Positions 2,760 through 17,949 of a stretch of DNA of 39,433 nt are shown here, piece after piece; position 1 is the stretch's first letter, and the number at the start of each line of letters is the position of its first letter. The notes under the pieces were generated by a model, which did no database searches, was not told the origin of the DNA, and saw nothing but the letters and a program-made list of their open reading frames with translations. Where the stretch lies: IMG/VR virus record IMGVR_UViG_3300032030_000013. The stretch is one strand, 5' to 3'. This DNA comes from a virus. Its lineage: Duplodnaviria; Heunggongvirae; Uroviricota; Caudoviricetes. Position numbers and translations under genes: made by a program.

Positions 2760-2833
<74 letters not shown>

Positions 2834-2844
2834 ATATTATTTTG

Positions 2845-3069: not shown

Positions 3070-3142
3070 TACGCCCACTGGGACTCGAACCCAGGACCCA
3101 CGGATTAAAAGCCCGTTGCTCTACCAACTGAGCTATGAGCGC
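3070..3142 (-). tRNA. tRNA-Lys(TTT)
   Basis: Cloverleaf, CT-TTT-AA. Confidence 0.95.
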
Positions 3143-3256
3143 AAATCTCATTTATCTATTGACTCCCATATCGGAATTTTACCGAAATGAAAACGCTGCA
3201 TCGTAAGGAGCGGGATTTTACCCCTAAGATAAACTCGATTAATTATTGTAACCTTG

Positions 3257-3337
3257 TGCCCTCTGTGGGACTCGAACCCACACCTCCGAAGAGCTAGATC
3301 CTTAGTCTAGTGCGTATACCAATTCCGCCAAAAGGGC
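3257..3337 (-). tRNA. tRNA-Leu(AAG)
   Basis: CTAGA-CTAAGGA-TCTAG, class II arm, A73. Confidence 0.92.
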
Positions 3338-3345
3338 ATATTGTG

Positions 3346-3419
3346 TACCTCCGGTGGGATTCGAACCCACGCTCCTATGCTTAAGAGGCATCAGCTTTAA
3401 CCAGCTAAGCTACAGAGGC
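3346..3419 (-). tRNA. tRNA-Lys(CTT)
   Basis: Cloverleaf, CT-CTT-AA. Confidence 0.94.
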
Positions 3420-3634
3420 ATTTAAAAGCTTCGGTTTTAACTTTGTTATCTTTTTGTATAGGATCATCAATCTATCTTTTCACCAGAGTAATTAGCTCAG
3501 GGTCCCGATTACGGACTTCTACCGTTTATCATATTCAATAACTAAGACTTGTAGATAGGCGAAGCATTTCGAACTACTTCATTGCCAACCGTAGCTATAA
3601 ATTTCTCTACAAGTTTTTGCATGGCATGCAATTG

Positions 3635-3707
3635 TGGGGCCACCCAGATTCGAACTGGGGTGACGACCTTGTAAGGGTCGCATACTCAACCACTATATGA
3701 TGTCCCC
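3635..3707 (-). tRNA. tRNA-Val(TAC)
   Basis: CGACC-CTTACAA-GGTCG. Confidence 0.93.
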
Positions 3708-3876
3708 ATTTATAATCTAATCTACACAGCTGACCCATTTCAGTAACGTCTTACATATCAGCTCCTACTGGTCACGACTGAACGTCTTCTTCTGCGAGAA
3801 GGTTTCTCACCTCCATTTTTTTGACCTGCCTCTTCCCCTTCAGAATTTTTAGATTCTGACCTCGATTAGATTATTG

Positions 3877-4064
3877 AACTCACGGGAGGATTCGAACCTC
3901 CATAATATTGTCTATAATATTTAATTTACTAAATAGCAAAAATGTTATTTTCTTAACACGTTAAACAAATTGCTAATAATTATGATTATATTTCTCTATT
4001 ATTTATATAATCATTCGCCTCTATTATAGGTTGTACTGCTGATACCATTCAGCAACCGTGAGTT
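3877..4064 (-). ncRNA. tRNA-like RNA with ~130-nt domain replacing the anticodon arm
   Basis: AACTCACG/CGTGAGTT, D arm GCTG-AATGGTAT-CAGC, T arm GGAGG-TTCGAAT-CCTCC. Confidence 0.7.
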
Positions 4065-4199
4065 AACTAATATATATTTCCTTGTTTTTTGTCCATTACG
4101 TTATACTCGGAGTAAAAAACTAAATATATAAAATTACAAAACCACTTAGAATATAACGGTATATTTGTTGCTAAGGTAATATACAAAACCTCAATTAAG

Positions 4200-4272
4200 T
4201 GCTCCCACCCGGATTCGAACCGAGACCTGACAGATTAAGAGTCTGCTACGCTACCATTAACGCCATGAGAGC
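4200..4272 (-). tRNA. tRNA-Lys(CTT)
   Basis: Cloverleaf, CT-CTT-AA. Confidence 0.94.
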
Positions 4273-4286
4273 AAACTTTCAAATTG

Positions 4287-4359
4287 TGCATCCACTGGGA
4301 TTCGAACCCAGACCTGACAGATTAAAAGTCTGCTACGCTACCATTAACGCCATGAATGC
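4287..4359 (-). tRNA. tRNA-Lys(TTT)
   Basis: Cloverleaf, CT-TTT-AA; D and anticodon arms match 4200..4272. Confidence 0.94.
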
Positions 4360-4365
4360 AATTAG

Positions 4366-4439
4366 TACCTGCACTGGGATTCGAACCCAGGACCCCGAGA
4401 TTAAAAGTCACGTACTCTAACCAACTGAGCTATACAGGC
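4366..4439 (-). tRNA. tRNA-Lys(TTT)
   Basis: Cloverleaf, CT-TTT-AA. Confidence 0.93.
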
Positions 4440-4448
4440 ATATACCTG

Positions 4449-4522
4449 TACTCCCTCTGGGACTCGAACCCAGGCCCCTCTGCTTAAAAGGCAGCAGCTC
4501 TAACCAACTGAGCTAAGAGAGC
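4449..4522 (-). tRNA. tRNA-Lys(TTT)
   Basis: Cloverleaf, CT-TTT-AA. Confidence 0.94.
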
Positions 4523-4678
4523 ATGTTTATAAATTCAAATTTTAACAATTATTTTGATTTTACGTGCATGCTTCTTATTAGTTAATTGTTAGGACTAATT
4601 GCTCTAAGGAAACATACACAACTAACGTTTTCGTTTAAGTTGTTTCATATTTCTTATAATTTATTTAGTTAATGTTTG

Positions 4679-4760
4679 TGGGGCCTGAGAGACTCGAACT
4701 CCCCGTGCGCGATGCAGCTGATTTACAGTCAGCCCCGATGCCATCTCCGGTCACGACCCC
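4679..4760 (-). tRNA. tRNA-Tyr(GTA)
   Basis: GCTGA-CTGTAAA-TCAGC, long variable arm. Confidence 0.9.
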
Positions 4761-4991
4761 AAAATGTGGAATTAAACCGGAATTCCACAACCGGCTAAAC
4801 TTATTTTTGGACCTTTCCATTGGATTAGTTTAGATTCAACCATAGATAAATCAAGAATAGATTTATCTCCCTACTATAATGGGGTAGGTAAATTCCCAAT
4901 GATTAGTTTATTCATCACGAACTAACTAATCCATATCATCTCCATTCTTCCATAAAAAATTATATAACGCTCTTCCATACGTTATACAATG

Positions 4992-5065
4992 TGGGCCAGG
5001 CAGGAATTGAACCCGCGACCTTTTGATTATGAGTCAACTGCTCTAACCATCTGAGCTACAGGCCC
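4992..5065 (-). tRNA. tRNA-Ile2/Met(CAT)
   Basis: CT-CAT-AA; GGGCC start typical of lysidine-type Ile2. Confidence 0.9.
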
Positions 5066-5070
5066 ATTAG

Positions 5071-5156
5071 TACCTGGAGCGGGACTTGAACCCGCACGCC
5101 CATTGCTGGACATCAGATTTTAAGTCTGAGGCGTCTACCAATTCCGCCATCCAGGC
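5071..5156 (-). tRNA. tRNA-Leu(TAA)
   Basis: CT-TAA-AA, class II arm. Confidence 0.95.
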
Positions 5157-5170
5157 ATCATTTATTGTAC

Positions 5171-5186
5171 CAATATGTCAAAGAAC
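5171..5186 (-). promoter_or_regulatory. boxA-like antitermination element
   Basis: GTTCTTTGACATATTG; recurs at 8145, 8898 and 17339 downstream of promoters. Confidence 0.7.
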
Positions 5187-5220
5187 GTATTGTTGTTTTA
5201 TTTATAATAATTACAAATAT

Positions 5221-5248
5221 AAAATAGTAATAAATATTATTATTTCAA
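5221..5248 (-). promoter_or_regulatory. putative promoter
   Basis: TTGAAA-N16-TATTTT. Confidence 0.65.
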
Positions 5249-5278
5249 TTATATTTATGTAAAAATTATTTCATTTTG

Positions 5279-5358
5279 TACCCCGAGTGGGATTCGAACC
5301 CACACCCAATTAAGGACGAATTTTAAGTCCGCTGCGTAGACCATTCCGCCATCGGGGC
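5279..5358 (-). tRNA. tRNA-Leu(TAA)
   Basis: CT-TAA-AA, class II arm. Confidence 0.94.
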
Positions 5359-5521
5359 ATTTAAGTTGAAATCCTCATGAGCAAGATAGTTATTAGGTAC
5401 GCAGTGTGCATCTGCGCATTGGAACATTTTCAAGTTGTTAACTAACCATCATTTTATGTGCTTTAATTAAGTTTACCAACTATCTAATTTCAACTTATAT
5501 TTTATAATTTTTTGATTTAAG

Positions 5522-5628
5522 AAGATATTTTAGTTGGATTCGAACCAACGCGAAAGGCTTGGAAGTTTCCTCATGTCTGACAAATACGTGGCCTTTGTAT
5601 TCGTATCCACTGCATCATAAAATATCTT
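5522..5628 (-). ncRNA. tRNA-like RNA with extended acceptor stem and ~30-nt anticodon loop
   Basis: AAGATATTTTA/TAAAATATCTT, AAAGGC/GCCTTT, GTTGG-TTCGAAT-CCAAC. Confidence 0.6.
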
Positions 5629-5704
5629 TGGCGGTCCCAACGGGATTCGAACCCGTACCTCCGACGTGACAGGCCGGCGATTGTAGCCATTCAACCATGA
5701 GACC
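5629..5704 (-). tRNA. tRNA-Asp(GTC), encoded CCA
   Basis: CT-GTC-AC, ends GCCA. Confidence 0.93.
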
Positions 5705-5824
5705 AGTGTCTGTTTACTTCAAAGTTACCTACCCGATATATACGTATAGTCCTAATATAAATTAGGGTGGCTAAGCCCTTCATCGGTTACCTACCTTCAG
5801 GGGTGAAACAGAAAAGACCCAATG

Positions 5825-5920
5825 TGCCAGTGGTAGGACTCGAACCTACTTACCACGAAGGCCAATACGAACTATTTGTTGACGTGGGACGGTTTTACAG
5901 ACCGCTGCCGTTACACTGGC
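5825..5920 (-). tRNA. rewired tRNA-like RNA, anticodon GTA (Tyr)
   Basis: GCCAGTG/CACTGGC-A; no D arm before GCGGT-CTGTAAA-ACCGT; GCC..TGGTAA follows the anticodon arm. Confidence 0.65.
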
Positions 5921-6122
5921 AAATTAAATGCATTTACCCACCTAGCCATCCACGATACGGTTCGTTGTGCTATCCTACGGCCTCGGTAATATGGCGAATT
6001 TGCAACTTCTCATATAACTGTACCACCATCGCTCTTCTTCACTTCTTTTCACCGTAACCCGTAGATGTAACCCTACTACTCAGAAGTCCATCGATTTGCT
6101 CCGACCTGATAAATACATTTAG

Positions 6123-6199
6123 CGGTCCCTACGGGATTCGAACCCGTCTGGTTGTACTCCGTGACAGGGAGACGTCCACCCCAAGCAGACCCAGAGACC
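6123..6199 (-). tRNA. tRNA-Asp(GTC)
   Basis: CT-GTC-AC, G73. Confidence 0.9.
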
Positions 6200-6345
6200 A
6201 ATATTCAATTTCACAGATAATTGAGAACTGTATTGGCGGTAGAGAGTTCAGCACCGGTCTGGGATTTAAATCAACCAGCCGTTTGGGATATGCTCAGGTA
6301 TCTACCTTTCCCTGACCTTGAGCTCCCAGGATTTTTACAGTCGTT

Positions 6346-6415
6346 GCTATTATCAAGGATTCGAACCTTTCCGCCGGCTGACAAGCCGGAATGCTACCGT
6401 TACACCAAATAATAA
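6346..6415 (-). tRNA. degenerate tRNA-Asp-like RNA
   Basis: CCGGC-TTGTCA-GCCGG with 6-nt loop; AT-rich acceptor; D and T arms intact. Confidence 0.5.
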
Positions 6416-6518
6416 ATGATATCTGCAACCTATCATGATTTGTTAATCCTCAACATTTACTCTACATTTCCATGTTGCAGCAGAAAGTTTTCAATGCATA
6501 TCGAATTAGCCATGTTCG

Positions 6519-6593
6519 CGGGAGCAGAGGGATTCGAACCCACAACCATTGGCTTAACAGGCCACCGCTCTAACCGTTAAAAGCTATACTCCC
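6519..6593 (-). tRNA. tRNA-Asn(GTT)
   Basis: CT-GTT-AA. Confidence 0.93.
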
Positions 6594-6801
6594 AATTATA
6601 AAAATCAATTCTACACAAGTTTCATTAGGGACACTTATTAGAAACTTCATCCTTTGACATAATCACCTCCCAAGCTTTTTGTCACAACCTTTGTTATTGT
6701 TCCATCTTACTCTCATATTGTCTTTCGACCTCTTTACAGTTATTGCAAATGTTCTGTAAAGTTTTAGGATTTCTTCAATAACCCATCCTGAAATTGATTT
6801 G

Positions 6802-6876
6802 CGGGAGCAGAGGGATTCGAACCCACAACCATCGGCTTAACAGGCCGCCGCTCTAACCGTTAAAAGCTATACTCCC
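6802..6876 (-). tRNA. tRNA-Asn(GTT)
   Basis: Near-identical to 6519..6593 with one compensatory pair change. Confidence 0.93.
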
Positions 6877-6998
6877 AAATTATATTAAGTAAGGATCAAA
6901 TTTCATTACTTATCTTCCATTGTCCGCATCGACGGAAACTACTCTTTAAGTATAGAAGTTGTTCAATAGCACTCGCCTCGACGATTTACTTAATATTG

Positions 6999-7070
6999 CG
7001 CTCCCAGAAGGATTCGAACCTACGACCAATAGATTAACAGTCTACTGCTCTACCGCTGAGCTATGAGAGC
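6999..7070 (-). tRNA. tRNA-Asn(GTT)
   Basis: CT-GTT-AA. Confidence 0.94.
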
Positions 7071-7139
7071 TGGAACCCGGAACATTATTTAACGAGATGA
7101 ACACCGGGTGGATATCTCGATAGTCATTCAACCAACTTG

Positions 7140-7213
7140 TGGAGAATGAGGGACTTGAACCCTGAACTCCTCCTTGCAAGGGAGGTGTGTTAGCCAATTA
7201 CACCACAAACCCC
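7140..7213 (-). tRNA. tRNA-Ala(TGC)
   Basis: CCTCC-CTTGCAA-GGAGG, G3:U70; acceptor partly mismatched. Confidence 0.88.
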
Positions 7214-7282
7214 GTACTCCAGTTTAGCCATTCCTTTTAAATTTTGCGAACCAAAGCAATCAAAACTGGAAAATGAAGCATG

Positions 7283-7356
7283 AGCTCCGTACCGGACTCG
7301 AACCGATAACATCCGCATTACAAGTGCGGCGCTCTACCAATTGAAGCTAACAGAGC
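7283..7356 (-). tRNA. tRNA-Thr(TGT)
   Basis: CCGCA-CTTGTAA-TGCGG. Confidence 0.94.
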
Positions 7357-7649
7357 AAATTACTTATCATCCGGATTGTTAACCAGGGTTTCTACACCAA
7401 ATGCGTTTCAAAGACGTTTAGATGGGAGCGTTCTATACATATTAAACTATAGATAAGTAAAAGTAAAGATGTAGTAGGATCACCTATTCCTACCTTCTGT
7501 CAATACTCATTCAAACTTCCGGATAAGGAAAGCAGTCATGACCGGTATTTGGCTGTATTCCTTGAACTTTTTAGTCTTGGTGAGGATGTTTATTCCATGT
7601 CCTTCAAAGTTTAGAGCAATGCGACTGTGGACATCTACATCTTTGTTTG

Positions 7650-7793
7650 AGAGTCATTAGAGAATTGAACTCTAAAGGTGAACAATTTCGTCGACAGCAC
7701 CACCTGTTTCCGAGTACTTTCGCCGGCAGACCATATTCTGTACAAACGGTTGGTAGCCTCCAGACCTCCAACTGCCGCTTATCTGTTTGACCC
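7650..7793 (-). ncRNA. ~144-nt RNA closed by tRNA-like acceptor stem and T arm
   Basis: GGGTCA/TGACTC, TAGAG-TTCAATT-CTCTA, internal multi-hairpin domain. Confidence 0.55.
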
Positions 7794-7942
7794 ATGTTAA
7801 AAATGGCTTCATTGAAAATATTATTCCGTATCGGTTAATACTTATTTCAATCTACTCCTACAGTATTTTCTCAGCCAAAATTATGAATGTTATTCCAACT
7901 TATTAAGTAGTCTTCCAACTTACATCGAAGGCATTCATATTG

Positions 7943-8014
7943 AGGTCCCAATGAGATTCGAACTCATACCACCGGATTACTAAACCGGAGTTCTACCATT
8001 ATAACTATAAGACC
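7943..8014 (-). tRNA. tRNA-Thr(AGT)
   Basis: CCGGT-TTAGTAA-TCCGG, U73. Confidence 0.85.
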
Positions 8015-8144
8015 AGATTGATAAGGAAATTCTGTTTGCATTACTACATATATTTACTGAACTATACCGTTAAGGTGCTTGGCATCTCATTGGCAGGGGT
8101 TTTTCACCACTCCTCTTCCATATCAGTTTCTATGTTTGTTGTAT

Positions 8145-8160
8145 CAATATGTCAAAGAAC
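8145..8160 (-). promoter_or_regulatory. boxA-like element
   Basis: GTTCTTTGACATATTG. Confidence 0.7.
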
Positions 8161-8201
8161 TCAAATGTAATTCGAAGTTTTTGTTTTCGTTTTACATATA
8201 T

Positions 8202-8229
8202 AATATAGAAATAAATTTCAAAATTTCAA
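8202..8229 (-). promoter_or_regulatory. putative promoter
   Basis: TTGAAA-N16-TATATT. Confidence 0.7.
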
Positions 8230-8271
8230 ATATAATTCAAAAAATTTTATTTTATTTCTAAATTATTTTTG

Positions 8272-8397
8272 TGATTATGGTTGGATTCGAACCAACGTAG
8301 CCCAGGGTAACTTACTTCCTCAGTTTAACTTTATCAAGAAACTTTCTAACGTTTTCAGCAGTGACCTGGTAGCACATCCAATCTGCTTCACATAACC
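8272..8397 (-). ncRNA. tRNA-like RNA with ~55-nt extension in the anticodon arm
   Basis: GGTTATG/CATAATC-A, CCAGG/CCTGG, GTTGG-TTCGAAT-CCAAC. Confidence 0.65.
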
Positions 8398-8412
8398 AAA
8401 AATCTATTTTTG

Positions 8413-8480
8413 TTTCTATACCCGGATTCGAACCGGAGACCTCTTGAACAAGCGCTCTTCCTTACTGAGCTATATAGAAA
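8413..8480 (-). ncRNA. tRNA-like RNA with truncated anticodon arm
   Basis: Normal acceptor, D and T arms; anticodon arm reduced to CTT-GTTC-AAG. Confidence 0.7.
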
Positions 8481-8574
8481 ATCCGCTTTCATAAAAACTA
8501 CCATACTCCATTATATACATACGGCCGATATTATATAACTTCATTACTCTCATTAATAATCCAACTTAAAAATG

Positions 8575-8645
8575 TTGGTCTACCGGGATTCGAACCCAGA
8601 ACAGAAGGACCAAAATCTTCCGTGTTACCATTACACCATAGACCA
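8575..8645 (-). tRNA. tRNA-Gln(TTG)
   Basis: U1:A72, TT-TTG-GT. Confidence 0.93.
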
Positions 8646-9060: not shown

Positions 9061-9088
9061 AATATAGTACTTTATTTTATAATTTTAA
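9061..9088 (-). promoter_or_regulatory. putative promoter
   Basis: TTAAAA-N16-TATATT. Confidence 0.5.
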
Positions 9089-9131
9089 ATTAATTAAGAA
9101 AATTTTTAAAAATATTATGTTTGTTTTATTT

Positions 9132-9171
9132 AAACAAATAAGTGGTTAGATTTTTGTTAATCCAACCACTT
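9132..9171 (-). terminator. intrinsic terminator (attenuator)
   Basis: AAGTGGTTGGATT-AACAAA-AATCTAACCACTT-ATTTGTTT. Confidence 0.75.
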
Positions 9172-9202
9172 GCATTTATATCATTTCTATTTTATTGTAC
9201 CC

Positions 9203-9316
9203 CTATATCTCAGAATCTCCATGCAAGTGGTCTTTACATAACGCATAATTCTTATTCCAAGTATTATTATCTAATATTTGGTCTAATATTTGTTTATATG
9301 TATTGACTTGTTGCAT
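9203..9316 (-). CDS. putative 37-aa leader peptide
   Basis: MQQVNTYKQILDQILDNNTWNKNYALCKDHLHGDSEI*; contains an 11-nt complement of the terminator 5' side. Confidence 0.55.
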   Translation of the reverse strand: MQQVNTYKQILDQILDNNTWNKNYALCKDHLHGDSEI

Positions 9317-9422
9317 TTGATATTTAATTAATTTAATTTATAATAAAAATATTCTAAGATTTTATATAAATAAATTAGATATTTTTTATAGAAAAATTCA
9401 AATAATTTATTTATTTTATATT

Positions 9423-10595
9423 TTATTTTAAGTTTTCTTCAATTTCTGAGATCATTTTCTTTACTTTCTGTACATATTCCTTAGCATCACGTATAGCTTC
9501 ATCTGATGAAGATGCATCATAATCCCAGTCTTTAAATTTTTCTTCATCCCATTCTTCTCCCTTTTCTTCAGCACGTTTCTTATAACGTTCCTTTGTACGT
9601 TCTGAATCTCTCTTATATTTCATTGCCTTATAAAATTGTTCATAAGCATAAGATACATAACGCATAAGATCATCTAAGCTAAAACGTTGATCCATGTTTT
9701 CTGGTTTAGACATTACCTTTTGGAATAAAGCAACCACTTCATCATTAGTCTTTTTGATTTCATCAAATAAAATATTTGGATCTGATTGAAGTTTCTGTGC
9801 TTTAATTTCTTTTACCATTGCACGATAACGACCTTGCTGTTGCTTAAGAAGATCACGTAAACTTCTTTCATCAAGATTAACAACTCCCTTTTGAGATTCT
9901 TCACGTTCTTTATGAAGTACATCATAGTCTTTAACCATATCTTCTTTGATTTCAAGGAAATATATGTCTAATCCTGAAACAACATCAATAGCTTCATCAA
10001 GTTTTAATGAGCGTTCTCCATACTTATATTTAGTTGCAGTCTTTTCTTGTACACCAGATTTATATCCTGTTGTTGGGAAATAATATACTCTTACGTCTCC
10101 TAAAGTTTTTACATAACCTTTTATGAAACAAACAACATCTTTAGTTCCTGGTTTACAACAAATTACATCAGCCATTATTTTCTTTTGATATACAGATCTT
10201 AATAACTTAATGAATTTCTTATCCCAATCTTCAGAATCTGCTTCAAAATATTGGAAGTCATCATCTTTAATTTCTGACCATTTTAAACCACGAATACCTG
10301 TCTTTTTATTATTTCCATATCTTGATGTTTCTGTTAATGGACCAAATATAGAAGCAAAAGATTTAGCAGTTTTTGTTGGAGAATAACCACGTCCTTCTTC
10401 TTTATAACGTTTTTCTGCTGCTTTATCATTTTCAGCATGTTTAGATTCTGCGTCTTTAATAGCTTTTGCTAAACTAGTCAATATTGATGATTGAAAACTT
10501 TCTGTTATAAGTTCATCAGCAATTAAATTAACTGTTTCTAAGAATATTGCTCTATCACAAGAATATTCTGACATATATTCACATAATTGTATCAT
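9423..10595 (-). CDS. hypothetical protein (390 aa, helical C-terminus)
   Basis: Long ORF, phage-like codon use; no motif recognised. Confidence 0.85.
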   Translation of the reverse strand: MIQLCEYMSEYSCDRAIFLETVNLIADELITESFQSSILTSLAKAIKDAESKHAENDKAAEKRYKEEGRGYSPTKTAKSFASIFGPLTETSRYGNNKKTGIRGLKWSEIKDDDFQYFEADSEDWDKKFIKLLRSVYQKKIMADVICCKPGTKDVVCFIKGYVKTLGDVRVYYFPTTGYKSGVQEKTATKYKYGERSLKLDEAIDVVSGLDIYFLEIKEDMVKDYDVLHKEREESQKGVVNLDERSLRDLLKQQQGRYRAMVKEIKAQKLQSDPNILFDEIKKTNDEVVALFQKVMSKPENMDQRFSLDDLMRYVSYAYEQFYKAMKYKRDSERTKERYKKRAEEKGEEWDEEKFKDWDYDASSSDEAIRDAKEYVQKVKKMISEIEENLK

Positions 10596-10696
10596 TTCTA
10601 AGTTTAATGTATTTATATATTAAAAATAAAAAAAGTTACATATATATTAATAAAATATATACATAACTTTATTGGGATATTTGTGTCAATTGCGAG

Positions 10697-10775
10697 TAGC
10701 CCAACTGGGATTCGAACCCAGACCCATAAGGACCGCTTTTGAGACGGCTGCGTAGACCAATTCCGCCATCGGGCC
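10697..10775 (-). tRNA. tRNA-Leu(CAA)
   Basis: CT-CAA-AA, Leu-type D loop. Confidence 0.92.
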
Positions 10776-10780
10776 AAAAT

Positions 10781-10851
10781 ATACTGAACTTAATGGAGTT
10801 GAACCATTCTGTAATTCTTTATCGCGCGCTATCACCGGATAAGTTCAGTAT
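10781..10851 (-). ncRNA. tRNA-like mini RNA (long acceptor-like stem plus T arm)
   Basis: ATACTGAACTT/AAGTTCAGTAT, AATGG-TTCAACT-CCATT. Confidence 0.55.
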
Positions 10852-10897
10852 TATATATTGATACAATTAAGAAATTTTATAAAGTTCATTAATAAAA

Positions 10898-11146
10898 TTA
10901 TGAAATTTTGTATAATTCATTATTGTCAATTGCTCGTCTTATCCATCTCATCAATATTAATGCTTTATCATAATGAGACATAAATGTAGCAGTTTCTCCA
11001 ACATCATGTTTATCTGACAAATCTATATCTAATGAATAGACAGTCCCATCTTCTACAGTTATATGATAAACTGCAATTCCACCAGATTTAACACAATCTA
11101 AAACAGCGGATCCTTTTACGATAGTTTTTAAATCATGAGTAATCAT
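10898..11146 (-). CDS. hypothetical protein (82 aa)
   Basis: Likely start MITHDLK with upstream AGAGG; the longer ORF call overlaps tRNA-Leu. Confidence 0.75.
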   Translation of the reverse strand: MITHDLKTIVKGSAVLDCVKSGGIAVYHITVEDGTVYSLDIDLSDKHDVGETATFMSHYDKALILMRWIRRAIDNNELYKIS

Positions 11147-11185
11147 AATAATACCTCTATATATTTTTCTTAAATTTGTTTGATG

Positions 11186-11265
11186 TGGGGTTAGTGGGAT
11201 TCGAACCCACACCCAATTAAGGACAGTGTCTTAGGCTGCTGCGTCGACCATTGCGCCATAACCCC
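11186..11265 (-). tRNA. tRNA-Leu(AAG)
   Basis: CT-AAG-AC, class II arm, A73. Confidence 0.88.
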
Positions 11266-11515
11266 ATTTTCTCTTTATTCTAACCTTCTGAATAAATGTA
11301 CTCGCGACATACAGATAATTCATACTTCTTGGTCTTACTTGAAATTATAAAGACGTTACCCCCCTCAGGGACATTCTTTACAATTTCTTTCAGCTTGATG
11401 ATTTCCTTTTTTCACAGGTAACGATAAATTCCTGTCATCAAGTCATTGAACAAAGAGTTAATTTGTAGTTTTATTTTAACCGGTTTAACTACATATAAAA
11501 ACGGTATCGTATTCG

Positions 11516-11589
11516 TAGGGCTGGTGAGAGTCGAACTCACGCTCCCTTGCTTGTAAGGCAAGTGCTTTAAACCACTAAGCTACAGCCCT
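11516..11589 (-). tRNA. tRNA-Val(TAC)
   Basis: CTTGC-CTTACAA-GCAAG. Confidence 0.94.
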
Positions 11590-11605
11590 ATATATTTTAA
11601 TTTTG

Positions 11606-11684
11606 TACCCCGCCTGGGACTCGAACCCAGACCCCTAAGGATAGCTTCTAAGGCTACTGACTATACCAATTCGTCTAGCAGGGT
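11606..11684 (-). tRNA. tRNA-Leu(TAG)
   Basis: GTAGC-CTTAGAA-GCTAT. Confidence 0.92.
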
Positions 11685-11708
11685 ATTATTAATATCAACA
11701 TTTATAGA

Positions 11709-11767
11709 TGGTTACGTTGGAATCGAACCAAATAGCTAGCATACATGTACCATTTACTGCGTAACCA
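11709..11767 (-). ncRNA. 59-nt tRNA-like mini RNA lacking a proper anticodon arm
   Basis: GGTTACG/CGTAACC-A, GTA-AATGG-TAC, TTGG-TTCGATT-CCAA. Confidence 0.6.
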
Positions 11768-11777
11768 ATTTAATTTG

Positions 11778-11846
11778 TCAGGGGTGATTGAGTTAAACAA
11801 CCGTCTCATAGTAAAATCCATGGCTCTATCGTTGAGCTAACCCCCG
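11778..11846 (-). tRNA. degenerate tRNA-like RNA
   Basis: TAGCTC..GAGC D arm, 6-nt anticodon loop ATTTTA, atypical T loop. Confidence 0.45.
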
Positions 11847-12082
11847 ATACACGTGGCTCTTTCGAGTTTCGTGAAAGATATGGTATCTTTCTGAGGTTCC
11901 TCGCCCTCTATAGGATGTGGTACATATCTGAAGATACAGGTACAACAACTCTAACTAACGCTTCTATAGATTCCTCAGACCACGCACTTAAGGAACAGAA
12001 CGTACGATTTCTCCTAACACCATAATATTAGGCTACTTCGATTCATAGGCCTGTGCACCAACCTATGACGGCATGCTTTAAT

Positions 12083-12403
12083 TTATAAACCCATTTGTTT
12101 TTGGTATTCTTTATCTCTTCTGTCTATTTCTGACAAAGGTGATACACCAGCATTTAATAATTCTATTTTTTCAAATCCATTTTCTTTAGTAATTAATGAA
12201 TCTTTCTCTGGTACGCATCCTTCATATCGTTCTCCGTATGATCCTGTCATTTTCTTAGTTGCAGGATCCAAATCTCCCCAATCAGCAGAATGAGTATTAC
12301 CTATAGGTTCTATAAAATATTTCTTTCCTGTGATTTTTGATTTAACAATAAAACGACCAGTCTTATCACTATCTTTCAAAAATCTATTATCATCTATTTT
12401 CAT
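12083..12403 (-). CDS. hypothetical protein (106 aa, DWGD motif)
   Basis: ORF with coding-like composition between RNA genes, same strand as the array. Confidence 0.8.
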   Translation of the reverse strand: MKIDDNRFLKDSDKTGRFIVKSKITGKKYFIEPIGNTHSADWGDLDPATKKMTGSYGERYEGCVPEKDSLITKENGFEKIELLNAGVSPLSEIDRRDKEYQKQMGL

Positions 12404-12426
12404 TTTCTCTACATATTATATATCTG

Positions 12427-12517
12427 CGGAGACGGCCGGACTCGAACCGACACACCGTTATTCACGATTACTAGTAGTTTTCAAGACTACTGCCTTACCA
12501 ATTAGGCTTACATCTCC
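12427..12517 (-). tRNA. tRNA-Ser(TGA)
   Basis: GGAG start, CT-TGA-AA, long arm, G73. Confidence 0.95.
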
Positions 12518-12665
12518 AAAATAATACCTTTACATTCCACTATCCCGTACAACTCTAATATTTTGCCTTGATGAATGATACACTAATGTATGTTGCTACA
12601 CATTGGTTGCCTACGGTAACTTCTTCTATTTATTAAGATAGATGTTTCCTTCAAGATATTCACGA

Positions 12666-12749
12666 GGTGGTATGTTGGATTCGAACCAACGTGAGCTCTC
12701 GCTACCAGGACCACAATCTGGCGTCATCGGCCACTAGACGAATACCACC
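12666..12749 (-). tRNA. tRNA-His(GTG) with long variable arm
   Basis: G-1:C73, TT-GTG-GT, extra arm AGC-GAGA-GCT. Confidence 0.88.
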
Positions 12750-12914
12750 ATATATAAAATCATCTTACACAGACTATTTCAAGTCATCCTTAACGCCATG
12801 AAACTAGAAGGTTCTATTTAAATAGAAATGGCATCCAACTGTTCTCCTCTCTGAATATCCATATTCTTTGCCATTAGAATATAGTTCTTTTCAGACCCTC
12901 AGATGATTTTATTG

Positions 12915-12989
12915 GGTATCGTGTCAGATTCGAACCGACATCTCAGTGATTCACAGTCACCGCCTTTTACCAGTTAAGTTAACGACACC
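12915..12989 (-). tRNA. tRNA-His(GTG)
   Basis: G-1:C73, CT-GTG-AA. Confidence 0.9.
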
Positions 12990-13193
12990 ATATTAAATCA
13001 GGTCAACCGCGCTCCCTGATATGTCCCGATACGTTTTTCATCATATTCAAGGCATATGACTGCACAAGCTGCGAGGGCGGGATTTCAACGTAAACCTCGG
13101 TACGGCCCTAAGCGGATTTATAAGAGGCCTCAGGGGTATCCTCTATTGGAGCAGGGCGGACATGCTGCGTACCTCACAGCTCCCTGCATATTG

Positions 13194-13265
13194 AGCAGCG
13201 TACCAGATTCGAACTGGCTCCTTAAGAATGGCGATCTCATATGCAACCATAAACACCTACACTGC
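13194..13265 (-). tRNA. tRNA-Gly(GCC)
   Basis: TC-GCC-AT (C33 instead of U33), U73. Confidence 0.85.
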
Positions 13266-13414
13266 ATTATTCGGTTTTCCTTAGATCCGAAAACTTAGTT
13301 CCGTGTCACGCCATCTGAACCCTCGCCTATGCATACTTCCTATATAATATATATTACGTAATTCAATTATATAGTCATAGGATATTTCTTTAAAGAAATA
13401 ATCAAAGAAGTTTG

Positions 13415-13545
13415 TCGCGGAGGTTGGACTCGAACCAACATAATCTTTTTCCAAATAAAAGCGTGTATACCGAAGTAACTCTAATCTACAGCATTCATAT
13501 TGAAGCAACAGCGAATAAAGTATTAAAAAATTTCACCACTCCGCG
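13415..13545 (-). tRNA. tRNA (Gln TTG or Pro TGG register) with Y-module insertion (~13472..13528) in the D loop
   Basis: CGCGGAG/CTCCGCG-A; GTGAAATT[insert ending AGAGTTACTTC]GGTATACAC. Confidence 0.75.
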
Positions 13546-13635
13546 AAATAAATAGTCTCTCCTATTAGTCACAACATTTTTTCTTAACCTTAAGTAATTA
13601 TAAATTACGCAGGAAACCTTGTTAAACCTGCCGTG

Positions 13636-13709
13636 TAGCCCCCACGGGATTCGAACCCGTTATTCCGGCTTGAGAGACCGACGACTTAAACCAATCTGTC
13701 CCGAGGGCC
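13636..13709 (-). tRNA. tRNA-Glu(CTC)
   Basis: CT-CTC-AA. Confidence 0.9.
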
Positions 13710-13721
13710 ATCAATTAAGAA

Positions 13722-13797
13722 TGGAGCATCTGATGGGAGTCGAACCCACGTCTTAGGCTTGGAAGGCGAACGTACTGAACCGTTATACGACAGATGC
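13722..13797 (-). tRNA. tRNA-Gly(TCC), encoded CCA
   Basis: CT-TCC-AA, ends TCCA. Confidence 0.92.
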
Positions 13798-13972
13798 ATT
13801 ATATAGGCACCGTATTATATCATTAATATAATTTAAATTTTAATATAAAACGGTGCCCACATTAAAGACAGTTTTTAATATTTGATGAAATTAATCATTC
13901 AAACTCCTATGAAGGATTTAACGTGGAGAACCTTGGGAGCACCCTTCGTTACCAAACTCCATTACTAATGCG

Positions 13973-14045
13973 AGCGGCTGATGGGAGTCGAACCCACGTC
14001 ACTGGCTTGGAAGGCGAGTATAATAAACCGTTATACGACAGCCGC
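13973..14045 (-). tRNA. tRNA-Gly(TCC)
   Basis: CT-TCC-AA, U73. Confidence 0.92.
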
Positions 14046-14073
14046 ATATAATATCTTTATATTAATATAAATG

Positions 14074-14149
14074 TACCGAGGGTGAGGGTCGAACTCACGT
14101 GAACCAACTAACCTTTCAACGCCTTATGAGAGCGAGGGTATACCTCGGC
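14074..14149 (-). tRNA. rewired tRNA-like RNA, anticodon CAT (Ile2-like)
   Basis: Same layout as 2524..2600: GCCGAGG-TAT-ACC-CT-CGCT/CTCATAA/GGCG-TTGAAA-GGT-TAGTTGG-T arm. Confidence 0.75.
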
Positions 14150-14150
14150 A

Positions 14151-14380
14151 TGGTCGGGAACCACTGACTTTCACAGGACCTCTACCCACCCACGGGTAGC
14201 GCAGTATGTTCGCATTTTCAAATTCAATTTCGTAAGTTAGCTATTCTTATTACTTTATCTTTCTGTCATTACTTATCATTATTATAAATATTATTGATCT
14301 CGAGAACTTTCAGTCTAATTGCGGCCTTACGCAAATATTTATAAATAATAACTTTCATACGAATCATTTTGCTAATTCCC
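14151..14380 (-). ncRNA. 230-nt tRNA-like RNA with ~165-nt D-loop insertion, ends in CCA
   Basis: GGGAAT/GTTCCC, TAGCA...TGC-G, CTACCC/GGGTAG arm, CTG-TGAAAGT-CAG T-like arm. Confidence 0.55.
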
Positions 14381-14384
14381 AAAG

Positions 14385-14458
14385 TTGGGGCACCGTGACT
14401 CGAACACGGGACTTTCAACGTATCAGATTGACACTCTAACCAACTGAGTTATGCCCCA
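14385..14458 (-). tRNA. tRNA-Ile(GAT)
   Basis: CT-GAT-AC. Confidence 0.93.
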
Positions 14459-14464
14459 ATTAAA

Positions 14465-14562
14465 AAGTAAGTAATTTTATATATTAATGCATTAAATATA
14501 TACGAAGTGTGCTACCGTTACACTAAGGAGTCGAACCTATCCTCTTCAAATATTACTTACTT
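14465..14562 (-). ncRNA. permuted tRNA-elbow mimic (T arm directly followed by D arm, no acceptor)
   Basis: AAGTAAGTAAT/ATTACTTACTT closes GAAG..AGG-TTCGACT-CCT-TA-GTGT-AACGGTA-GCAC-A-CTTC. Confidence 0.65.
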
Positions 14563-14564
14563 AG

Positions 14565-14638
14565 TTGGGCTACCGGGATTCGAACCCAGACCTTCAGCTT
14601 CAAAGGCTGACGTGCTAACCGTTACACAGCATAGCCCA
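14565..14638 (-). tRNA. tRNA-Gln(TTG)
   Basis: TCAGC-CTTTGAA-GCTGA. Confidence 0.92.
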
Positions 14639-14716
14639 ATTATAAATATAAGGCTCTTCCCGTAATGTGGGCTTGTACTTTCGGACTACCTGACACCAAT
14701 TCGTCACCTTATATTG

Positions 14717-14790
14717 TTGGGATATCCGGATTCGAACCGAAACCTGCGGAGTCAGAGTCCGCTGTACTAACCATTATACTGTATATCCCA
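14717..14790 (-). tRNA. tRNA-Gln(CTG)
   Basis: GCGGA-CTCTGAC-TCCGC. Confidence 0.92.
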
Positions 14791-14800
14791 ATTTAATTTG

Positions 14801-14873
14801 TGGGGCCACCCGGGTATGATCCGGGATCTTATCCTTATCAGGGATAAATCCTTACCAGTTAGACGACAGCCCT
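14801..14873 (-). tRNA. tRNA-Ile(GAT), atypical T loop
   Basis: TATCC-CTGATAA-GGATA; T loop ATCATAC. Confidence 0.82.
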
Positions 14874-15100
14874 AAATTTGAGGTTTATGGATAACCTCAA
14901 AAACCCGCAGCGTTTTAGTAAGCGACTTAAATAAAAGTTCTGTTCCATCTCGCCCAATGTATTAAAGCTCAAGCCTTTGGGAGTTCTTTACTTATGTACA
15001 CTCGATTATGACAACTCCGGCAAGTGATATGTGGTAAATTTCCGGATAACCCATATCTCTAATGCCAACTTTACCTATCGTCTAGGATAATGAACTTTTG

Positions 15101-15172
15101 TAGGGCCACGGAGACTCGAACTCCGATGACCAGGTTGAAAACCTGAGATCCTGACCGTTAGATGACAGCCCC
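15101..15172 (-). tRNA. tRNA-Glu(TTC)
   Basis: TT-TTC-AA. Confidence 0.92.
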
Positions 15173-15179
15173 ATATTAA

Positions 15180-15253
15180 AATTCCTGTAATAAGCGAATA
15201 AAGTATTTTTAAAGACCCATTCTTGAAGTAACTCTATTCTTCAACAAGGAATT
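15180..15253 (-). ncRNA. stand-alone Y-RNA-like module
   Basis: AATTCCT/AGGAATT, GTTGAAG, GAATAGAGT/ACTTTATTC, TTACTTC. Confidence 0.75.
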
Positions 15254-15254
15254 G

Positions 15255-15326
15255 TACTCGGTACGAGATTCGAACTCGTATGGCAAGAATGAAAATCTTG
15301 AATCCTAACCCTTAGATGAACCGAGC
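15255..15326 (-). tRNA. tRNA-Glu(TTC)
   Basis: CAAGA-TTTTCAT-TCTTG. Confidence 0.92.
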
Positions 15327-15329
15327 ATA

Positions 15330-15398
15330 AATTGATAGAATAATCGTAGAAAGTATTTAAGCATTCCTAGAAGTAACTCTCTACTACACTAATCAATT
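15330..15398 (-). ncRNA. stand-alone Y-RNA-like module
   Basis: AATTGAT/ATCAATT, GTAGAGAGT/ACTTTCTAC, TTACTTC. Confidence 0.75.
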
Positions 15399-15420
15399 AA
15401 ATTTGCCAAGATTGAGATCG

Positions 15421-15504
15421 TAGGGGCGACGCGACTCGAACGCGCATAGGCCGAAGCTTCCGCATCCCAAATGCGGGCGGGTACCAATTACCGGTTACAC
15501 CCCT
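15421..15504 (-). tRNA. tRNA-Pro(TGG) with extended variable region
   Basis: CCGCA-TTTGGGA-TGCGG, GC-TTCG-GC extra arm. Confidence 0.88.
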
Positions 15505-15570
15505 AAATATTCAAGAAACTTATTAATTTTTTCTATCATTAATAATTACTACATTCCGATTATATAATAA

Positions 15571-15599
15571 TAAATAGATATTATCATTATATTTTTCAA
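15571..15599 (-). promoter_or_regulatory. putative promoter
   Basis: TTGAAA-N17-TATTTA. Confidence 0.5.
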
Positions 15600-15964
15600 A
15601 AATAAATGTTAACTATTTCTCTTCAAGTTATTGATATTTTACGGCCGATATTCAATATCATAACATAGCTTGCATGTTTCCCATTCAGCTGTTTAAGGAG
15701 CTACCTTAAATCTCGGTGGGCAATTTCCTAACATTTATTTGTTATACGGTATTCTATCTTAAACTATCAAACCTTGCGGGCCATACTAGGTGTCTCACCA
15801 CGTATCTCCGTATATAAGATAATTGTAATCTTCTCACTTTCCTCGTCTCACTATGGGGTTCGTAGCTATCGACCACATAGGTCTTACCGAGTCCTATACC
15901 ATATTGGAGCTGGACTTGCAGCTGCTTTAACGTTTGTCCGCAGGTCTTGAAAATTACAATTAGG

Positions 15965-16044
15965 TCAGGGAGACAGGACTCGAACCTGCATAACTTAATC
16001 TCGCTTCCAAAGCGAGTCGGTCACCTATTACCGGCTACACCCTG
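15965..16044 (-). tRNA. tRNA-Pro(TGG)
   Basis: C1:G72, A73, CTCGC-TTTGGAA-GCGAG. Confidence 0.9.
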
Positions 16045-16332
16045 ATTAATATAAATCTTTCCAAATCCTCATACTTAATATTTCCTCTACATTCCGCGTA
16101 GGCGAGGTACTTCTTGGCGCCTTAAGTACAAGATAGCTCTAAGATAATGAAAACAACTATAGGACACGTGTTAAATTAAAATAATTGTTTTCAGAGCTTA
16201 CTCAACCAATGTTGAGCTTAAATAGTTTTAGACTTAGATACACGTCTGGGACTTTTACTAAATTTACTCTAAGTCTTTATAATATAAATTACAACATATT
16301 TTCCATAGCATTTTTGGCTGTAATCTATATTG

Positions 16333-16407
16333 TGGGTCCGACTTGAGTTGAACAAGTGCCTTCGGATTTTCAGTCCGACGAGCGACAACCACCTACACCA
16401 CAGACCC
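16333..16407 (-). tRNA. tRNA-Phe(GAA)
   Basis: TCGGA-CTGAAAA-TCCGA. Confidence 0.9.
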
Positions 16408-16412
16408 AAAAT

Positions 16413-16553
16413 AAAATTATCGGAACAGCTATAAAAGTATAAATAAATATCGATTCTCTTGGATTCGAACCAAGGATTCAATTCTGGAAAAATTGCATTA
16501 AAACCACTTAATTAAAAATCGTGAAGTAACTCTTATATACACCAGATAATTTT
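16413..16553 (-). ncRNA. Y-RNA-like module enclosing a complete tRNA-Gly(TCC)-like cloverleaf
   Basis: TATAAGAGT/ACTTTTATA stem; inside CGATTTT/AGAATCG, ATTA-AGTGGTTT-TAAT, CAATT-TTTCCAG-AATTG, CTTGG-TTCGAAT-CCAAG. Confidence 0.75.
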
Positions 16554-16554
16554 G

Positions 16555-16641
16555 AGGCCAGGGTGGGATTTGAACCCACGCGGGAATTTCTTCCAATAGT
16601 TTTGCAGACTACTCTCATCAACCAGACTCGGGCACCTGACC
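16555..16641 (-). tRNA. tRNA-Cys(GCA) with long variable arm
   Basis: CT-GCA-AA, U73, extra arm GGAA-GAAA-TTCC. Confidence 0.88.
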
Positions 16642-16648
16642 AAATATA

Positions 16649-16824
16649 AAATCTACAGAATTAATGAATAAAGTAATTATTAGATAAAAATTTCGTGTAT
16701 ACCAATTTCACCACCGCGGCACGATGCCATGGACGGGACTCGAACCCGTATTCCATTTACTGGAAAAATTTTGAGAAGTTATCAGCTTTCTTATGAAGTA
16801 ACTCTATCCTACACTAGTAGATTT
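16649..16824 (-). ncRNA. YrlA-like Y RNA (circularly permuted tRNA-Leu-like domain)
   Basis: Order: module 5' strand - variable arm - T arm - acceptor closed by a loop (CCATGGCA-TCG-TGCCGCGG) - D arm - module 3' strand. Confidence 0.8.
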
Positions 16825-16829
16825 GTTTG

Positions 16830-16915
16830 CGGAGAAAGTAGGTGTCGATCCCAATCCGTTTCACCGAACGAGCTGTTTTCAAGACAGTCCTGCGGGCCGC
16901 CGCAGTTCATTCTCC
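16830..16915 (-). tRNA. tRNA-Ser(TGA), 8/4 (allo/Sec-like) fold
   Basis: 8-bp acceptor, 6-bp D stem with 4-nt loop (CTGCGG-CGGC-CCGCAG), 4-bp T stem, long arm, G73. Confidence 0.8.
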
Positions 16916-17148
16916 AATTTAAATAGATATAAGAATAATTATATTGCACCCATGCCCAGTCAAGAATTGAACTATCCTAGTTGCGGTTTCGAACCACGCT
17001 TCAAATTATTAATCACACCAGTGATACAGACATATATCTATTTTAATATTCAAATATTGCAATCATTCAACATTCTGCCACCCAGGCAGTTCAAACCCAG
17101 GGAAAGATTTAAACTTCTGACTCCTTACGGATATATTTGAATATTTAG

Positions 17149-17241
17149 CGGAGGCTGAGGGACTTGAACCCCCGCGCCGATGGGTTACACCGACCTAGCA
17201 CGTTAGCAGTGTGCCCCCTTCACCAACTTGGGTAAACCTCC
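17149..17241 (-). tRNA. tRNA-Ser(GCT)
   Basis: CT-GCT-AA, long arm, G73. Confidence 0.95.
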
Positions 17242-17338
17242 GAACATCCACTCTCAAAAGTATTAGTAATCTTTAATGGAAACTGATTAGTCATTGCTTT
17301 CACAGCAACGTTTAACTTTATAAATATCTTAATTGTAC

Positions 17339-17354
17339 CAACATGTCAAAGAAC
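17339..17354 (-). promoter_or_regulatory. boxA-like element
   Basis: GTTCTTTGACATGTTG. Confidence 0.7.
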
Positions 17355-17391
17355 GTTTAACATTATTGAACTTAATCAAATTATGTTTCAG

Positions 17392-17463
17392 TAGCCCGTA
17401 GGGGAGTCGGACCCCTCTTGGCAGGTTGAAAACCTGTAGTCCTTACCGATAGACGAACGGGCC
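17392..17463 (-). tRNA. tRNA-Glu(TTC)
   Basis: TT-TTC-AA; T loop TCCGACT. Confidence 0.9.
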
Positions 17464-17508
17464 AAGTTTGTATTTTAAATAATATTAGTATTCAAATATT
17501 ATATTAAT

Positions 17509-17536
17509 AATATAGTAACTTAAAAATTAATTTCAA
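17509..17536 (-). promoter_or_regulatory. putative promoter of RNA array
   Basis: TTGAAA-N16-TATATT. Confidence 0.7.
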
Positions 17537-17589
17537 ATATTTTAAGAATTTTTTTAAGAATTTTTTAAAGAATTTTTATAACGCTTTAT

Positions 17590-17627
17590 AAAAAACAAAC
17601 AATCTCCAGAATTTTGTTTCTGGAGAT
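17590..17627 (-). terminator. intrinsic terminator (attenuator)
   Basis: ATCTCCAGAA-ACAAAA-TTCTGGAGAT-TGTTTGTTTTTT. Confidence 0.8.
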
Positions 17628-17662
17628 CTTACTTTATATTATAAGTACTGTATATTCAAAAT

Positions 17663-17767
17663 TTATATTTCAGTATAACCAGAAACTTTATTTACACCCA
17701 ATCCACAAGGTTCACCTGAAAAAGATGATCCAAAAATAAATTCAATATGTTGACTGAGTTGCATCAT
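17663..17767 (-). CDS. putative 34-aa leader peptide
   Basis: MMQLSQHIEFIFGSSFSGEPCGLGVNKVSGYTEI*; GTTTCTGG complements the terminator 5' strand. Confidence 0.55.
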   Translation of the reverse strand: MMQLSQHIEFIFGSSFSGEPCGLGVNKVSGYTEI

Positions 17768-17949
17768 AATAATTTCTGTTTACTTAATATTATTTTCTAA
17801 TGTTTTCTAAATTTAAATAATTATAATAATAAAATTGTAAAATGGTCAAAAAAATTCAATTTTTTTTCTAAATTTTTTTCTTAACCATATAATTAAGAAA
17901 TTTATTTTTATTTATATATAGAAAATACATAAAAACAATACAATAAATA

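Follow-up and report, generated by a model that had tools for sequence, protein, structure and literature searches.

Two leader-peptide elements with the features of transcription attenuators precede the tRNA arrays of an AT-rich megaphage and carry codons matched to the tRNAs encoded behind them

The IMG/VR record IMGVR_UViG_3300032030_000013 is a stretch of 39,433 nucleotides from a virus of the Caudoviricetes (the whole of which is referred to here as the window), and from base 1 to ~17.5 kb it holds 53 tRNA genes, all on the minus strand, as identified by ARAGORN and Rfam. These genes form two arrays, A and B, that are split by an open reading frame (ORF) of 390 amino acids, and upstream of each array lies a short leader ORF followed by an intrinsic terminator. 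It is these two leader elements, likewise called A and B, that are described here. The rest of the window is protein-coding, has a GC content of 21-27% and is almost without family matches; searches of PHROGs and Pfam gave no family for the 390-aa gene or for the two giant neighbouring ORFs. The closest relative of the window is a 435-kb IMG/VR contig and further relatives are metagenome and viral contigs of up to ~400 kb, several of which appear from their record names to derive from sheep-rumen samples. Given contigs of this size among its relatives, the source virus is an AT-rich megaphage. No relative was found among GenBank phages by either DNA or protein comparison. The components of the two elements and the arrays that they precede are as follows.

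17663..17767, minus strand: leader ORF A, 34 codons plus TAA
17590..17628, minus strand: terminator A, an 11-bp hairpin (17628..17601) with a T-rich tract
17679..17686, minus strand: antiterminator 5' strand A, GTTTCTGG, with 13 nt between its end and the stop codon
17623..17616, minus strand: antiterminator 3' strand A, CCAGAAAC, within the 5' arm of terminator A and pairing exactly with GTTTCTGG over 8 bp
10696..17463, minus strand: tRNA array A, 24 tRNAs (ARAGORN, Rfam) for Glu, Ser, Cys, Gly, Phe, Pro, Ile, Gln, His, Leu and Val, the Ile and Leu anticodons being Ile(GAT) and Leu(TAG, AAG, CAA)
9203..9316, minus strand: leader ORF B, 37 codons plus TAG
9131..9175, minus strand: terminator B, a 13-bp hairpin (9171..9140) with a T-rich tract
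9221..9231, minus strand: antiterminator 5' strand B, ACCACTTGCAT, with 15 nt between its end and the stop codon
9175..9165, minus strand: antiterminator 3' strand B, ATGCAAGTGGT, overlapping the 5' arm of terminator B and pairing exactly with ACCACTTGCAT over 11 bp
368..8645, minus strand: tRNA array B, at least 29 tRNAs for Gln, Thr, Ala, Asn, Asp, Leu(TAA), Met/CAT, Lys, Val and Trp, together with a Tyr-like gene (5825-5920); the array may extend past the start of the window

The leader ORFs with their translations, the terminators and both complementary segments had been proposed in a first-pass annotation of this DNA, and all were recovered at these positions with the pairs exact. Among terminator-like sites on the minus strand over 18.5 kb, the hairpins of the two terminators rank highest. 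The antiterminator helix has 6-7 nt in common with the 5' arm of the terminator, and the chance of an equally long match overlapping that arm, estimated from 5000 dinucleotide shuffles of the upstream 150 nt, is p=0.025 for A and p=0.0004 for B. When the terminator 3' arm is left out, the antiterminator forms in the minimum-free-energy fold of both leaders. The energies of the antiterminator and terminator helices were calculated as -8.6 and -15.0 kcal/mol respectively in A, and as -15.1 and -16.6 kcal/mol in B. In neither leader is there a hairpin that sequesters the antiterminator strand, and an untranslated leader should therefore read through by default.

Relatives of the locus were sought through the 390-aa protein, which returned 98 homologues of 34-93% identity, and also by means of two conserved DNA words and one metagenome scan. 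Two matches from the 17-mer scan (L009 and L010) were set aside as chance matches in unrelated DNA. Profiles of the leaders searched with nhmmer gave 11 distinct sequences for A and 18 for B, from contigs in which the neighbouring 390-aa protein has an identity of 35-95%; a repeat of the nhmmer search added none, and no locus was found when the N-terminal part of the neighbouring 1643-aa protein was compared with viral contigs. The gene for the 390-aa protein (9423-10595, minus strand) lies between the arrays; its family, in which no domain is recognised, numbers ~100 members, with relatives in L025, L027, L029, L030, L035, L048 and L050 among them, and is also found in related phage contigs that lack a tRNA array in the vicinity. 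Contigs that carry the 390-aa gene without a tRNA array are also without leaders, which indicates that the leaders travel with the arrays and not with the 390-aa gene.

Comparison of these sequences supports the first-pass proposal of an antiterminator, since compensatory changes are found in related phages. For antiterminator B, 94% of cells in the alignment are paired, compared with 25-41% in controls in which the partner was slid along the sequence. Six of its 11 pairs have changed on both sides, including four pairs that lie outside the terminator stem, a result matched by 0/500 shuffles. Antiterminator A is paired in 90% of cells and reaches a length of 10-12 bp in several lineages; within its core (TTCYGG/CCRGAA) one pair has changed from U-A to C-G in 4/10 relatives, as was seen in 4/500 shuffles. 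Both terminator stems also covary, with five covarying stem pairs in terminator B as determined by RNAalifold. The loops of these terminators are not conserved in the same way. The A-rich, ACAAA-containing loop to which the first-pass annotation drew attention is present in both terminators of the window but is replaced in relatives by GCAA, AAA, GAAAA or ATAAAA, and was dropped as a family feature.

The reading frames of the leaders were compared across 10 distinct A and 16 distinct B relatives (26 sequences). The ATG and the frame are kept in 10/10 and 16/16 of these respectively, at lengths of 32-40 codons, with insertions and deletions that comprise whole codons; each of the other two frames contains 2-6 stops across the leader relatives, a separate tally for leader A giving 1-4 or more. 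The pattern of substitution differs between the two leaders. In leader A third codon positions are the most variable and synonymous and non-synonymous changes stand at 131:137. In leader B conserved codons are fixed at all three positions and there are 81 synonymous as against 454 non-synonymous changes. The combination in leader B of codons fixed at every position with free amino-acid change elsewhere suggests selection on codon identity and not on peptide sequence. Neither Pfam nor PHROG has a family for the leaders. The M-Q start and E-I end that leaders A and B have in common in the window reflect common descent and not independent convergence.

The C-termini of the leaders are not conserved as peptide. 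The first-pass annotation had described a GAR-ATA-stop ending, and ATA is indeed the last sense codon of both window leaders, but relatives end in GTA, GGA, ATG, GTG, ATT, TTT, TGC, TGT or CAA and an ATA sensor codon was consequently dropped. In three B leaders a different frame is used across the antiterminator strand, and two of these three stop right after it. What is constant is the geometry, in that the stop codon follows the antiterminator 5' strand by 0-22 nt, also in leaders with an altered frame or C-terminus. Designed read-through of the TAG of leader B was considered and rejected: in the window the extension would add 8 codons and end just before the antiterminator 3' strand, the extension in L001 stops earlier, and the window genes fit translation table 11. 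Leader B ends with TAG only in the clade of the window. Separately, the last gene of array B in L037 (~20900-21173) is a tRNA with the anticodon CTA, that is a TAG suppressor, and on this account some members of the family of the window phage probably read TAG as sense.

The codons of the leaders were compared with the tRNAs of the arrays behind them. Array A tRNAs can read 27/33 codons of leader A, compared with a background of 41% in phage genes (p=2e-6), and this leader samples all 11 amino acids of array A (p=0.006). Array B tRNAs can read 27-30/36 codons of leader B, including nearly all of codons 2-26. A two-by-two comparison of leader against array gave a Fisher p of 1.6e-5, or 4.8e-5 under strict wobble rules. 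The split extends to codons for the same amino acid, leader A using ATT for Ile and CTC or TTG for Leu where leader B uses ATA and TTA, in each case as fits the anticodons of its own array. Each leader ranks first among the 82 short ORFs of the window for its own array.

The match is concentrated in what may be called the sensing region, defined as running from codon 2 to a point 12 nt ahead of the antiterminator strand. Here own-array codons account for 21/22, 21/22, 23/23, 24/25, 24/25, 25/26, 25/25, 24/25 and 23/24 codons in nine A lineages, and for 20-23 of 22-24 codons in the six B lineages with complete arrays. Among 28,539 windows of 22 codons taken from the real genes of the family none reaches 21 array A codons, and the corresponding value for B is p=3.5e-5. 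Over the last ~11-13 codons of the leaders the own-array match falls to only about half (about 6/11). The boundary of the sensing region lies at the point where a stalled ribosome would start to cover the antiterminator strand, and the geometry thus fits. Codon 2 of leader A (ATG, AAA, AAG or ACA) is a regular exception within the sensing region in that it is not readable by array A, and it may serve translation initiation instead.

Leader and array were also seen to change together. Of 23 single-step non-synonymous variants in leader B, 22 stay within the array B codon set, where 12.1 would be expected (p=9e-6); for leader A compared with the window tRNA set the figure was 8/12 against 6.2 expected, which is not significant. 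Arg codons occur only in the A leaders of L032 and L019, and Arg tRNAs were found only in array A of L032, the L019 locus being incomplete. Within the sensing region TTA is confined to L031 and L037, in both of which array A starts with Leu(TAA), and an internal ATG is found in leaders whose array A has a CAT tRNA, the window and L001 being without either. The order of codons is well kept, as would result from most tRNA classes being sampled by one or two codons that are each under purifying selection.

Further features were identified within and around the leaders.

17820..17849, minus strand: candidate promoter P1 of leader A (TTGACC, 18 nt, TATAAT), the best sigma-70-like match (11/12) in bases 1-18500
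17709..17731, minus strand: candidate pause hairpin conserved inside ORF A, with an AU<->UA exchange in four sequences (A2 columns 37-62 of the RNAalifold consensus)
17509..17536, minus strand: promoter-like P2 of array A (TTGAAA, 16 nt, TATATT)
17483..17497, minus strand: core of a palindromic motif, ATTTGAATACTAATA, just upstream of the first tRNA of array A
9336..9345, minus strand: conserved -10-like block upstream of leader B, TATTATAAAT, kept in relatives
9257..9281, minus strand: candidate pause hairpin conserved inside ORF B, with a CG<->UA exchange in five sequences (A3 columns 42-66 of the RNAalifold consensus)
9061..9089, minus strand: promoter-like P2 of array B, with a TTTGAAA ... 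TACTATATT arrangement that is also present downstream of leader B in L005
8931..8997, minus strand: two copies of the palindromic motif, in a 52-bp tandem duplication (8931-9034)

A -10-like TATTAT(A)AT block ~35 nt upstream of the ATG of leader A is kept in relatives. There is no strong terminator between array A or the 390-aa gene and leader B, and leader B is therefore reachable by transcripts from both. In L001 an additional ORF of 221 aa lies between the 390-aa gene and leader B. The hairpins conserved within ORFs A and B do not pair with the antiterminator strand and may be pause hairpins. The first-pass annotation had cautioned that each operon has its own candidate promoter downstream of the terminator, and this caution was borne out, the sites (17536..17509 and 9089..9061) being conserved in relatives. 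Between the terminator and the first tRNA the arrangement TTTGAA-N17-CTATATTA is kept in nine lineages. The palindromic motif is present in three exact copies in the window, all of them downstream of the two terminators, as many copies being found in 0/100 shuffles, and it too is kept in relatives. The inverted repeat (of the AATATT...AATATT type) in the 52-bp duplication could act as an operator, or form a hairpin at the 5' end of the P2 transcript.

Taken together, each element is probably a ribosome-mediated transcription attenuator, the leader ORF of which would act as a codon test panel for its own array and sense the supply of the tRNAs encoded downstream. From the anatomy, conservation, covariation and codon-to-tRNA match that are observed we infer translation of the leaders, stalling and a read-through response. 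Transcripts would begin at P1 and, in the case of leader B, would also enter from array A. When all of the sampled tRNAs are available the ribosome would reach the stop codon with its footprint covering the antiterminator 5' strand, upon which the terminator would form and transcription would end. If any sampled tRNA were scarce, the ribosome would be expected to stall within the first ~22-26 codons and leave the strand free, and pairing of the free strand with the terminator 5' arm would allow RNA polymerase to continue into the array. The net effect would be negative feedback on the phage tRNA supply, on top of the second, candidate promoter P2. The core of the first-pass annotation, which was leader-peptide attenuation through mutually exclusive antiterminator and terminator helices and opened by stalling for tRNA, is upheld by ORFs that are open in all relatives, by an antiterminator that covaries and by codons that match the downstream array. 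On balance we also lean towards a more specific form of this proposal, in which the virus would meter its tRNA output by 'test-strip' leaders that carry approximately one codon per tRNA species of the array behind, such that a shortage of any single species opens that array.

Several observations weigh against this interpretation. Antiterminator A of the window is weak, with 8 bp formed over a 55-nt loop and -8.6 kcal/mol set against -15 kcal/mol for its terminator. There is no Shine-Dalgarno sequence upstream of either leader ATG, as is likewise the case at the start of the neighbouring 1643-aa gene. Across its whole ORF the match of leader B is only modestly above background (p≈0.02-0.04), a consequence of array B codons being common in this genome. 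The decoding of ATA and TAT by array B of the window rests on CAT-anticodon tRNAs and on the atypical Tyr-like gene, and it is uncertain since a BLAST comparison of the Ile(TAT) and Tyr(GTA) tRNAs of relatives with the window gave T-arm matches only. The idea of a codon panel was itself formed on this window, and as the relatives share ancestry with it the replication that they provide is only partly independent. Finally, the conserved promoter-like P2 between each terminator and its array means that the arrays are transcribable without read-through, and the attenuator may control only part of the output; it may add a demand-driven share to an output that is basal or separately regulated.

The same architecture, with its unsequestered strand and expected default read-through of an untranslated leader, would also fit a general sensor of translation capacity, in which read-through is a response to ribosomes being slowed or missing for any reason, such as host shut-off, low initiation or stress that targets the ribosome, and codon content is secondary. 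This appears unlikely, as both the restriction to own-array codons and the difference between the leaders (Fisher p≈2e-5) would be left unexplained, as would the findings that variant codons remain in-set and that leader codons follow array content. A distinctly unlikely alternative is that the leaders are independent small-protein genes with insulating terminators and that P2 alone drives the arrays. The conservation of P2, the peptide motifs kept across lineages and the synonymous excess of leader A would all be accommodated, but the helix between the 3' end of the ORF and the 5' flank of the terminator covaries, including pairs outside the terminator stem, and the C-terminus and even the frame can change while the stop codon stays beside the antiterminator strand. 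Nor would small-protein genes account for leader B, which is without a third-position excess and has frequent amino-acid changes that are confined to array B codons, or give any reason for the codon match in peptides that have no Pfam or PHROG family.

Alternative helices are in themselves no proof of a role for the ribosome, and the decision could in principle be taken by a protein, a tRNA (in a T-box-like manner) or a small molecule, with the open frame being incidental. The high nucleotide conservation of leader B at all three codon positions and the conserved hairpins inside both ORFs are in keeping with such a translation-independent RNA switch. We nevertheless consider it quite improbable; the frame is open in 26/26 distinct sequences despite insertions and deletions, against the 2-6 stops in other frames, no match to T-box or any other Rfam family was seen even at E≤1, and codon-level matching to tRNAs presupposes in-frame decoding. 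It would be more surprising still were the complementarity to have arisen by chance or hitch-hiking, for example as a functionless partial duplicate of the terminator 3' arm. The 5' strand does resemble that arm, as local duplication would give, and the A match taken alone reaches only p=0.025, but the joint chance of the complementarity in A and B is ~1e-5, compensatory changes are found across lineages and the position relative to the stop codon is conserved.

Some additional observations concern the arrays and their surroundings. In three related records the tRNA matches listed all fall within one ~20-kb block that holds both arrays, from which these two arrays appear to be the main tRNA complement; a third array with a leader of its own was considered and discarded, the listed matches being confined to this block. 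The division of amino acids between the arrays is kept across lineages in which the 390-aa protein is only ~40% identical, and the few tRNAs that switch array between lineages are CAT, Leu-TAA, Arg and Ile-TAT. Three tRNA-like genes on the minus strand of the window are atypical. That at 5825-5920 has a Tyr-type GTA anticodon arm and an irregular body, scores 34.9 bits with Rfam and is called by ARAGORN only with an 'intron', and those at 6346-6415 and 8413-8479 have six-base anticodon loops. The interior of array A in L002, L003 and L005 contains ORFs with matches to Pfam DUF559 (unmarked), and to GIY-YIG only faintly, that may be homing-endonuclease-like genes. Between the motif copies and the first tRNA of array B lies a conserved segment of ~260 nt (8660-8920, minus strand) that is also present at L001:12270-12500 and L005:17010-17220 and is almost unchanged in relatives that have only 63% identity in the flanking protein. 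Rfam gave no match to it at E≤1, and it may be a new structured RNA.

The purpose and expression of the large tRNA sets of phages are debated, and the proposals include codon compensation, host tRNA loss and escape from tRNA-cleaving defences. Phage tRNA sets have been proposed to make up for the loss of host tRNAs to anticodon nucleases, retrons or PARIS (PMC10264068, PMC11555353, PMC12409363), and cases of this kind would provide a physiological reason for tRNA shortage during infection. A search of the full-text literature found no description of leader-peptide control of phage tRNA genes, and the Lak megaphage paper, when searched by term, gave no instance of 'attenuat' or 'leader'. If the proposed mechanism is correct, these elements would be, as far as the literature searched shows, the first known attenuator of tRNA genes, the first leader with a panel of several codons and the first leader-peptide attenuator reported for a phage, and a megaphage would monitor its decoding capacity per codon class and supply tRNA on demand. 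The sensor would be a compact one of ~180 nt with the availability of defined tRNAs as its input, and similar controls upstream of tRNA arrays elsewhere, in bacteria and in other viruses, could be sought computationally by their codon-to-array match.

The elements invite comparison with several known systems. With T-box riboswitches they would share the sensing of tRNA status and an antiterminator/terminator switch ahead of genes of the translation apparatus. However, the T-box binds uncharged tRNA directly and without translation, whereas an ORF is conserved here; a scan of the leaders against Rfam returned only tRNA matches and no T-box, whether at gathering score or at E≤1, the conserved T-box sequence is likewise absent, and the curated Rfam leader families (Trp, His, Leu and Thr leaders and others) gave no match. 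In antibiotic-resistance leaders of the ermC or cat type a ribosome stall exposes an alternative structure. For the tandem attenuators of mgtCBR it is proposed that leader-ORF translation controls stem-loops and hence downstream transcription (PMC3641672). The likeness is that translation of a short ORF is proposed to set stem-loops and downstream transcription, and the difference is that those leaders answer a drug, one amino acid or an ion while the input here would be a defined set of tRNAs encoded by the regulated genes themselves.

The closest parallels are with the attenuators of the amino-acid operons trp, his, leu, thr, ilv and pheA, and with that of pheST. Both elements have the sequence-level hallmarks of leader-peptide attenuators, namely an ORF, an intrinsic terminator, an exclusive antiterminator and matched codons. 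As in those operons there is a short ORF in the 5' leader, the antiterminator competes by using the 5' arm of the terminator, the position of the ribosome would decide the outcome and the codons relate to the regulated function. The differences are several. The regulated genes are tRNAs and not enzymes or a synthetase, and in place of a run of a single codon there is a panel of ~15 anticodon classes (11 amino acids) most of which have one or two codons. The 5' strand of the antiterminator is contained in the ORF, a short distance ahead of the stop codon, and there is no equivalent of the 1:2 helix that sequesters the strand in the trp attenuator, so that an untranslated leader should read through and not super-attenuate. 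Finally, the elements described here are viral, are duplicated with two different panels and are followed by a second promoter-like site. If they act as proposed, classical attenuation would be extended from amino-acid supply to tRNA supply.

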